Positions 1-1,082 of a stretch of 3,798 nucleotides of DNA are shown here, piece by piece. Source of the DNA: Escherichia coli (GTDB taxonomy: Bacteria; Pseudomonadota; Gammaproteobacteria; Enterobacterales; Enterobacteriaceae); the NCBI RefSeq assembly GCF_003334255.1, contig NZ_QOWU01000115.1; one strand, written 5' to 3'. Within the stretch, counting starts at the first letter, position 1. Each line of letters opens with the position of its first letter. Below the pieces are notes generated by a model, which searched no databases, was not told where the DNA came from, and worked only from the letters and a program-made list of their open reading frames with translations. The position numbers and the translations under genes are program-made.

Positions 1-1082
1 CCAGAGGCGAAAAAGGAGACCCGGGGGGGCCTCAGGGACCAAAGGGGGATACTGGTCCGAGAGGTGAGCCGGGGCCGGCAGGAGCAAAGGGAGAGCGCGG
101 TGAGACCGGACCTGCGGGGCCGAAAGGGGAACCCGGGGAACGTGGTCCGCAAGGATTACAGGGCCCCGCCGGAGAGAGAGGTGAACCGGGTCCGGCAGGT
201 CCGAAAGGTGAACGAGGCGAAGCTGGACCTCAGGGACCTCGTGGGGAGCCAGGCCCGGCGGGCAGCGCAGCAAATGTGGCAGATGCGACGACGGCACAGA
301 AGGGAATTGTGCAGTTAAGCAGCGCAACGGACAGTGATGATGAAACGAAGGCAGCCACACCGAAAGCTGTGAAGGCGGCAATGGATGAGGCCAGGGCAGC
401 GAAACAGAAGGCAGAAGAGGTTGCGACAACCCGCCCGTCGGGAGAAAGCATACCTGGACCGAAAGGTGACAGGGGCGAGCAAGGACCGGCAGGTCCCACA
501 GGTCCGAAAGGTGAGCGCGGTGAACCCGGACCTCAGGGGCCTGCAGGACAGAAAGGTGAGCAGGGCCTCCGTGGGCTGCAGGGGGCGACAGGACCTGCGG
601 GAGCAGTGGGGCCCGCAGGCCCACGGGGACCGGCTGGTGCAGCTGGTCCCAAAGGTGATGCAGGCCCGACCGGACCCCGGGGTCAAAAAGGTGATACAGG
701 ACCTGCAGGTCCGCAGGGACCAGCTGGCCCGGCAGGCCCACAGGGGGTTGCCGGAAGGGACGGCAATGTTTCCACCGGGAAATATGCGGTTGGTTCTTAT
801 GTTTTTGGCGTGTCCTCTGTCTATGCTGACGGCGAAGGCTTATTTTCATCAGGGATATATGAAAACATTCAGGGTAGCTCCATTGATCTGATTTCAATAC
901 AGACAACACAAACAGGCGCATCAACACCAAATCAAATCTGGTTTTTGAAACTGGAGGAGGACATTCCGGGGGTGTGGCGGGCATTTAAACCCGCCGCATA
1001 TATTGATCTGATGCCAGAAGGAATGCAAGGAGGAAAGAACTCGATGTTTAACTTTATTACTCTTTTCCAGCGGATAGCGTAA
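1..1082 (+). CDS. Phage tail fibre protein with collagen-like (Gly-X-Y) repeats; 5'-truncated by the window edge (first complete codon starts at nt 3)
   Basis: The frame containing ORF 276..1082 stays open back to the window edge, with no in-frame ATG/GTG/TTG before GTG 276, so the gene starts upstream. Translation gives two Gly-X-Y blocks (about 27 triplets at nt 27-269, about 35 triplets at nt 456-767; [12 protein letters not shown]-rich), an Ala/Lys/Glu-rich linker (nt 270-455), then a ~105-aa non-collagenous C-terminal domain that may be the receptor-binding tip. Stop TAA at 1080-1082 is followed 11 nt later by a coupled small gene, the usual tail-fibre/accessory-gene layout. Confidence 0.85.
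27..269 (+). repeat. Collagen-like Gly-X-Y coding repeat block 1 (within tail-fibre CDS)
   Basis: Direct translation gives consecutive G-X-Y triplets ([81 protein letters not shown]). Hand-counted GC is about 75% in nt 61-120. Short nucleotide motifs recur (e.g. gagcgcggtga at 100-110 and 512-522). Confidence 0.9.
456..767 (+). repeat. Collagen-like Gly-X-Y coding repeat block 2 (within tail-fibre CDS)
   Basis: About 35 consecutive G-X-Y triplets from GPK GDR GEQ to GVA GRD GNV. Nucleotide-level similarity to block 1 (compare ~195-240 with ~501-545: ggtccgaaaggtga.cg.gg.gaa...ggacctcaggg.cc). Confidence 0.9.

Follow-up and report, generated by a model that had tools for sequence, protein, structure and literature searches.

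Collagen-like proteins encoded by prophages of Escherichia coli were grouped by Ghosh et al. 2012 (PMC3368898), who defined the architectures EPclA to EPclD, found that the lengths of the collagen domains (Col) differ by multiples of three, and ascribed the modularity of these proteins to inter-prophage recombination. A G-x-P-G-G-P-x-G interruption was described there as a conserved feature of the two-domain EPcl proteins and, to go by the biophysical part of that paper, EPclA and its fragments form a stable trimeric collagen helix. Among homologues from short-tailed Shiga toxin (Stx) phages, Sp5 ORF67/ECs1228 is labelled by antibody at the tail end in immuno-electron microscopy (immuno-EM), a 2,793-aa Sp5 protein being required for tail formation, and gp61 of phi24B makes six lateral fibres (phi24B preprint). 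Here we describe the 3' part of a gene for a fibre of this kind, located in the first 1,082 positions of a 3,798-nucleotide (nt) stretch of E. coli DNA (contig NZ_QOWU01000115.1, assembly GCF_003334255.1), which was analysed at its full length and is referred to as the window. The architecture, the length variation and the Gly-Gly break of this protein are already known from Ghosh et al. 2012, and the finding is real but ordinary. It places the fibre among the collagen-like fibres of E. coli prophages, in which clean allele pairs show both shaft change and tip exchange.

Identity and architecture of the fibre

The whole window is 99.0% identical to the genome of E. coli G1/2 (NZ_CP060083; locus L001), and positions 1-1082 are 100% identical to locus L020 of IMG/VR. 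On the + strand, frame 3 reads without interruption from the window edge to a stop codon at 1080-1082, and the 5' 936 nt of the 2016-nt gene (L001:11067-13082) lie outside the window. In the G1/2 record the fibre gene adjoins an adaptor gene (DUF6682), with an N4-gp56-type capsid gene further upstream, and is followed by a DUF4376 gene, a gene with a YadA C-terminal domain, more tail genes and a giant LPD38 protein. This gene order matches the late region of short-tailed Stx phages such as Sp5, and the fibre is a homologue of Sp5 ORF67/ECs1228, 933W L0121 and phi24B gp61. An earlier note, made from the letters of the window, had proposed a collagen-like tail fibre; the RefSeq name (tail fiber protein), the best PHROG match (PHROG 366, tail fiber, E 1e-152) and the place after the adaptor gene all agree with it. 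We therefore consider it highly probable that the region encodes the lateral tail fibre of a temperate E. coli phage of short-tailed, Stx-phage-like (Sepvirinae-like) type, a judgement which extends jointly to the mechanism of length change, the mosaicism and the reading of the seven-G (G7) tract set out below. The parts of the gene that fall within the window are the following:

3-1082, + strand: 3' 1080 nt of the collagen-like tail fibre gene, residues 313-671 and the stop codon of a 671-aa protein (from the open reading frame and comparison with the full gene)
6-269, + strand: 3' part of collagen block 1, consisting of two triplets (6-23), an extra Gly codon (24-26) and 27 triplets (27-269)
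23-29, + strand: G7 homopolymer (CCG GGG GGG CCT) encoding the break G-D-P-G-G-P-Q-G
270-455, + strand: non-collagen linker between the blocks, with Phage_fiber_2 (PF03406) at about 288-413
456-770, + strand: collagen block 2, 35 unbroken Gly-X-Y triplets (from the sequence and Pfam)
771-1079, + strand: C-terminal tip domain of 103 aa, presumed to be receptor-binding

In the full protein, these parts are preceded by an N-terminal domain and an Ala-rich coil. The Gly-X-Y periodicity is far above chance, and the two blocks noticed earlier, of about 27 and 35 triplets, are both real within the window; however, the window edge cuts through block 1, which in the full gene comprises 57 triplets and one additional residue (172 aa). 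Uninterrupted Gly-X-Y runs of the kind that characterise collagen triple-helix proteins thus count 27 and 35 triplets within the window and 57+35 over the whole protein, in which Pfam Collagen (PF01391) gives four matches (E 5e-9 to 6e-8), with Phage_fiber_2 between them at residues 408-449 (E 3e-18). The rise of a collagen helix is 0.286 nm per residue, at which the whole shaft of about 277 residues would measure roughly 79 nm. The N-terminus is matched in Pfam by CarboxypepD_reg (E 3.6e-7) and weakly by PF08400 (E 0.016, residues 1-128); we count the phage-fibre N-terminal domain (PfN, PF08400) as present, with residues 1-229 being 78-99% identical to the fibres of Stx-phage-type loci. The protein also starts like ORF-13 of Stx2 phage I, an EPclB entry in the table of Ghosh et al. 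Residues of about 110-229, outside the window, contain much Ala, Glu, Lys and Ser and little Leu, Ile and Val, as described for the PCoil region, and by this composition the N-terminal domain should be followed by an alpha-helical coiled coil. The protein should be trimeric, with the N-terminal domain docking on the tail and a shaft in two segments, in which the window protein would form a collagen triple helix.

As in EPclB, two collagen domains surround a Phage_fiber_2 repeat. In contrast, the C-terminal PfC domain of that class (Phage_fiber_C, PF06820) gave no match in the full-length Pfam scan, so that the protein is best described as an EPclB body with an alternative tip in the style of EPclC/D. 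Likewise, the fibres of Stx phages share with it the N-terminal domain (identity about 81% across residues 1-229), the coiled coil, two collagen domains, Phage_fiber_2, the break and the position after the adaptor gene, and vary in length by whole triplets, whereas the window tip is not PfC and its protein has 31+26+35 triplets vs 32+20+38 in these homologues. The closest isolated phage fibre is the putative tail fibre AVD99025 of phage GER2 (MG710528; Sepvirinae, Oslovirus), which has the same body (99.1% nucleotide identity over 1-657), 31+26+37 triplets and a tip of distant homology that ends in LTLFQRIV; it differs in the tip, only about 43% identical, and in the N-terminal part of the downstream DUF4376 protein.

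The G7 tract coincides, as the earlier note had pointed out, with the break G-D-P-G-G-P-Q in Gly-X-Y periodicity. The encoded peptide G-D-P-G-G-P-Q-G (nt 15-38) corresponds in the first collagen domain to the G-x-P-G-G-P-x-G interruption, and G-D-P-G-G-P-x-G is kept in every fibre of the family with a long first collagen block. Relatives write the break peptide in six different nucleotide ways, with G runs of 3, 4, 6 or 7, and the length of seven is exact in 19/19 loci that carry the version of the window, of which about 15 are independent because some duplicate the same contig. Because the break has six spellings and G7 is invariant in the 19 loci, there is no sign of an indel hotspot, one of the two explanations that had been offered; the other, a natural imperfection, was correct in that the break is a conserved motif. 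The G7 tract is one synonymous spelling of a conserved single-Gly insertion and not a switch.

Shaft length and the repeats of the collagen-coding DNA

To describe shaft length, triplets were counted as block 1a + block 1b + block 2 in a survey of tip-bearing E. coli and IMG/VR loci. Fibres with a 100% nucleotide-identical tip carry from 62 to 93 triplets, corresponding to about 53 to 79 nm of collagen at the same rise per residue, and fall into seven shaft-length classes:

31+26+35 triplets: window, L001, L007
32+26+35 triplets: L009
31+29+23 triplets: L004
31+27+23 triplets: L010
31+24+23 triplets: L012, L014
44+23 triplets, without the Gly-Gly break: L011, L013
19+20+23 triplets, on a lambda Stf-type body after J and lom: L003, L005, L006

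Beyond this tip, 63 IMG/VR loci with the same N-terminal domain display more than 20 triplet combinations and at least 7 tip families. The alignment of homologues that the earlier note had called for therefore returned differing counts, and not the identical ones which it had named as speaking against its reading.

RefSeq (PGAP) labels three of these length variants (L011:2037-3812, L012:1935-3812, L013:2037-3812) as partial pseudogenes with a missing C-terminus, although their frames are intact to the normal stop. The L012 protein is nearly identical to the L014 protein, which is annotated as intact, with about nine N-terminal substitutions and equal length and triplet counts. The pseudogene labels look like an annotation artefact arising from length variants.

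How the length changes is seen in pairs of alleles that are 98-100% identical elsewhere and differ by a single indel. These indels are flanked by short direct repeats of 8-16 nt, one of them imperfect, or alter the count of tandem units. The events mapped in this way, together with an inactivating one and a repeat that bears on them, are:

9 nt: bounded by an 8-nt direct repeat
18 nt: bounded by an 8-nt direct repeat, with one other mismatch in 1.9 kb
45 nt (5 triplets), window 70-122, + strand: bounded by the 8-nt direct repeat CGGGGCCG at 70-77 and 115-122; absent from L012 and L014
147 nt (49 codons including the extra Gly): bounded by an imperfect 9-nt repeat
45 nt: a tandem unit, with no other mismatch in 2.2 kb
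99 nt, two events: a tandem unit in the 933W group, giving 9, 20 or 31 triplets
282 nt, in frame: bounded by an 11-14-nt repeat; L031 to L029, with loss of the Phage_fiber_2 linker and fusion of the blocks
40 nt, out of frame, window 628-667, + strand: from the first of two GACCGG copies (a 6-nt repeat at 628-633 and 668-673); inactivates the gene in IMG/VR locus L008/L019
11-nt repeat CCGGCAGGTCC, + strand: 192-202 (block 1) and 486-496 (block 2), sharing one codon phase; the L029 deletion is flanked by the homologous pair

Nearly all length variants stay in frame, and the 147-nt deletion keeps the Gly register because 49 codons including the extra Gly are removed. Recombination between the two blocks, as envisaged in the earlier note, is seen in L029, where it used an 11-14-nt repeat common to block 1 and block 2; given the placement of CCGGCAGGTCC, the same deletion could occur in the window allele. 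The broader proposal that repeats allow the shaft to change in length with the tip undisturbed is borne out by the seven triplet classes of same-tip fibres and by the clean single indels, with the caveat that most mapped junctions use repeats shorter than had been expected. Moreover, exchange between phages, and not slippage inside a single gene, accounts for much of the length variation.

The repeats themselves are less distinctive than they had appeared. Near-identical stretches of 11-45 nt were said to be common to both blocks, and repeats do exist; however, the 11-mer gagcgcggtga lies at 93-103 and 513-523 and not at 100-110 and 512-522, the pair of about 45 nt (195-240 vs 498-543) is identical at only 38/46 positions (83%), and exact repeats inside the gene reach at most 16 nt (196/499), followed by eight 11-nt pairs. 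When synonymous codons were shuffled 1000 times with the protein kept fixed, the longest repeat reached 16 nt or more in 156/1000 shuffles, and shared 11-mers were at least as numerous in 232/1000 (p about 0.16-0.23). Since the shuffle reproduces both the longest repeat and the 11-mer count, the nucleotide repeats of the gene are what any gene for this protein would contain, and we reject a recent intragenic duplication or homogenisation of the sequence. Tandem Repeats Finder reported no significant array for the gene, its sole output being a marginal 9-nt one at 491-512 (score 30). Among internal repeats, the best is degenerate, with 66 nt at 73% identity and 81-nt spacing, and the near-identical head-to-tail units of the 'aba'' arrangement that characterises the 933W group were not found in the window gene. 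That group carries a clean 99-nt tandem unit with 96% identical copies, and in Stx2 phage I the 99-nt units are identical at 95/99 positions, whereas the window gene is without such units; in GenBank AP004402, the homologous gene is already annotated with an 'ababa'' repeat.

These observations fit slippage or microhomology-mediated events with selection for in-frame products. Because it is G+C-rich and repeats every 9 nt, collagen-coding DNA is full of short in-phase direct repeats, between which replication slippage or microhomology-mediated deletion and duplication would gain or lose whole triplets, and longer common stretches would permit ordinary homologous exchange between co-resident prophages. 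In-frame products would keep both the Gly-X-Y register and the tip, and out-of-frame products would be left as pseudogenes; as a result, shaft length varies and tips, with the DUF4376 gene, are swapped between bodies. A parallel is found in the antireceptors of S. thermophilus phages and in ORF8 of the Guarani and Sputnik virophages, in which Gly-X-Y coding repeats likewise lie between the domains of host-recognition proteins: collagen-like repeats were proposed as recombination hotspots in the S. thermophilus phages, and an in-frame 81-nt deletion accompanied a change of virophage host range. Those proteins and their hosts are unrelated to ours, and a phenotype was tied to the deletion there, whereas the comparison here is drawn from sequence alone.

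Mosaic joint, tip exchange and alternative explanations

A switch of identity inside block 2 marks the window allele itself as a recombinant:

598-673, + strand: recombination joint inside block 2, 76 nt common to the L002, GER2 and L003 types

Upstream of it, window 1-597 is 99.5-99.7% identical to the fibres of L002 and phage GER2 and about 62% identical to L003, whereas 674-1082 is 100% identical to L003 and not alignable with L002 or GER2. The ends of other matches agree with the joint: those to E. coli genomes begin at 600/603, and that to GER2 ends at 657. Because identity switches across 598-673, we infer that a homologous crossover in block 2 joined a Sepvirinae-type body to a tip cassette that lambdoid prophages carry too, the same 3' cassette being found in the lambdoid J-lom-stf context. 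It belongs there to the EPclC-type fibres of lambdoid Eib prophages (L003, L005, L006), whose last 483 nt, comprising the end of block 2 and the tip, are 99-100% identical to ours and which are likewise followed by the DUF4376 gene and an Eib-like YadA-type gene, but whose lambda Stf-type N-terminal domain, short coil, 19+20+23 triplets and place after J and lom in a long-tailed prophage are different. L003 would correspond to ORF-401 of P-EibA (Ghosh et al., Table 3), an assignment made from length (483 vs 479 aa) and collagen sizes and not from compared sequences. We had considered L010, L012 and L011 as three separate crossovers between window-type and L003-type genes, and dropped this for the simpler reading of one recombinant (L016 type) followed by nested deletions. 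In the fibres of the IMG/VR loci L018 and L032, which share the same body, a non-collagen C-terminal region of about 280 aa stands in place of block 2 and the small tip; that of L018 holds a second Phage_fiber_2-like motif. Because these two loci swap everything beyond it, the linker after block 1 appears to be another exchange point.

The tip moved in this way is rare. Its DNA (771-1082) occurs in 13/5426 complete E. coli genomes, always at 99% identity or more, and in six IMG/VR loci, and we flag it for attention. No match was found to profiles in Pfam, PHROGs, NCBIfam and PDB with the tip, nor in Pfam with an alignment of tips; a word-indexed search of proteins with the tip gave a single partial one, and tblastn of the tip against 50,697 phage records gave nothing at E 1e-3 or better, a threshold at which the tip of GER2 is too distant. 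An exhaustive HMMER search of 1.84 billion representatives yielded one true relative, P0004 (42 bits), a fragment that closely resembles the C-terminal end of the GER2 fibre; four other matches were repetitive proteins and were judged spurious. The tip is 43% identical to that of GER2/P0004 and shares with several other tips of the fibre family a conserved frame of residues and the C-terminal motif [LI]-F-x-R-x-x. Modelled as a monomer by AlphaFold2, the tip is beta-rich (pLDDT 72), and no significant structural neighbour of the model was found; presumably, this small globular tip binds a cell-surface receptor. We rejected diversification of the tip by a diversity-generating retroelement, for which there was no direct test: the annotation of L001 shows no reverse transcriptase in the 12 kb to either side, and among the 13 genomes the tip never falls below 99% identity.

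Tip type is accompanied by a change in the gene that follows:

1094-1687, + strand: DUF4376 gene (RefSeq, PHROG)

In its protein the first approximately 82 residues change with tip type and the last approximately 115 are nearly invariant. Because of this covariation, the product is probably a tip-specific accessory or assembly protein of the fibre. Many E. coli matches to the window start at 1341, inside this gene.

Several other explanations were weighed against a fibre that changes its shaft by in-frame events and exchanges its tip. The repeats could be only a passive by-product of Gly-X-Y coding, and the length differences a result of old lineage divergence and not of ongoing recombination or slippage; the absence of a nucleotide-repeat excess over the codon shuffle in the window allele suits this, as do the many homologues that differ throughout the collagen regions, e.g. 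L051 vs L044. We nevertheless regard it as improbable and largely refuted, because allele pairs 98-100% identical over about 2 kb are set apart by one clean indel, in one pair without any other mismatch, and the tip is 100% identical across the seven shaft-length classes. Equally, the triplet counts might be suspected of being assembly artefacts produced by collapse or expansion of repetitive collagen-coding DNA, considering that repetitive G+C-rich DNA can misassemble, that several IMG/VR loci are drafts and that L034 has N runs. Keeping in mind, however, that variants are also present in records described as complete genomes, that independent isolates repeat three of the classes (four genomes have 31+24+23, several have 44+23, and the window type comes from four sources), that exact repeats of at most 16 nt are far below the length of a sequencing read and that nearly all variants are in frame, such an origin has very little likelihood.

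We give just as little weight to the G7 tract being a slippage-prone contingency site, or a sequencing error that created a false break. Seven-G homopolymers can slip in replication or sequencing, and this one sits exactly at the break in periodicity; yet the break is a described feature of the family, relatives with G runs of only 3 or 4 keep G-D-P-G-G-P-x-G, the 19 loci with this version do not show the length variation of a homopolymer contingency locus, and a +1 or -1 shift of frame only truncates the protein according to the list of open reading frames. Finally, partial NCBIfam matches to Scl2/SclB, Lcl and Scl1 (E 1e-48 to 2e-52) could be taken to indicate a bacterial surface collagen-like adhesin of Scl or Lcl type and not a virion fibre. 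These matches cover the Gly-X-Y part only, their scores (178.7, 169.3 and 165.3) are far under the curated cut-offs (325, 500 and 400), the gene has the adaptor gene on one side and prophage tail genes on the other, and the Sp5 homologue was placed on the tail by immuno-EM, which makes this the least credible of the alternatives, close to negligible.

Some points do weigh against our interpretation of a shaft remodelled between short repeats. Exact repeats of at most 16 nt are short for RecA-dependent recombination, and events within a single gene are for this reason probably rare; with repeats no more abundant than the protein predicts, nothing marks the window allele as unusually unstable. 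All of the evidence is comparative, the direction and parentage of each event being deduced, and some of the IMG/VR loci come from draft assemblies. As regards receptor binding, the phi24B preprint doubts that the related tip of gp61 binds BamA.

A wider reading, of which we are rather doubtful, would have shaft length under selection, its 62 to 93 triplets (approximately 53-79 nm) being matched to the depth of O-antigen or capsule, and collagen DNA acting as a recombination linker that moves a tip-plus-DUF4376 cassette between Sepvirinae-type and lambdoid phages. The cassette-moving part is partly visible in the mosaic joint and the lambdoid context, and exchange between phage types is hinted at in the phi24B preprint; the half concerning adaptive length is conjecture. 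In practical terms, the mapped junctions and the co-varying N-terminus of the DUF4376 protein suggest points at which fibre modules could be cut and joined, for the engineering or typing of Stx-like phages. Otherwise the locus matters little beyond correct annotation and leaves current understanding unchanged.

Downstream region and state of the prophage

The remainder of the window holds a spacer and two further genes:

2495-3565: Eib-like gene, 356 aa, with a signal-peptide-like N-terminus and a YadA-type anchor (PDB 2lme, E 1e-18; EibD 2xzr, E 4e-8)
3656-3798: start of a 471-nt gene for hypothetical protein WP_021565060, which follows the Eib-like gene in all related loci

Between the DUF4376 and Eib-like genes, the AT-rich, unannotated spacer (1688-2494) contains three hairpins that resemble terminators and carry T-runs; all of them lie on the minus strand, their stems being at 1712-1695, 1841-1824 and 2012-1991. 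An exact 16-nt repeat, ATACAGAATTTTCGTA, occurs at 1915 and 2092, each copy about 75-80 nt upstream of a terminator in the minus-strand sense. From this layout, the two paralogous units of about 120 nt could be small RNA genes; one of them folds better than shuffled sequences (z = -3.6) and the other does not, and a scan of the window against Rfam gave no match. In 27/5426 E. coli genomes the spacer is present, the median copy number being three.

Judged from its homologies, the gene at 2495-3565 looks like an Eib-like adhesin carried as prophage cargo, although its NCBIfam YadA score (62) is far below the cut-off of 750. It also appears to be mosaic, because its length differs among related loci (1071 to 1281 nt). 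At about 3590-3625 on the + strand, a short inverted repeat of high G+C content (GGCAGGCA / TGCCTGCC) precedes a run of eight T (3618-3625); by eye it looks like the terminator of the Eib-like gene, and the terminator scan did not list it.

In the G1/2 prophage, frameshifts are annotated in the genes for terminase, portal and capsid and in one neighbour (L001:2707-8919), and the tail region is split by an IS1 at 20068-20765. This points either to decay of the prophage or to indel errors in the assembly.

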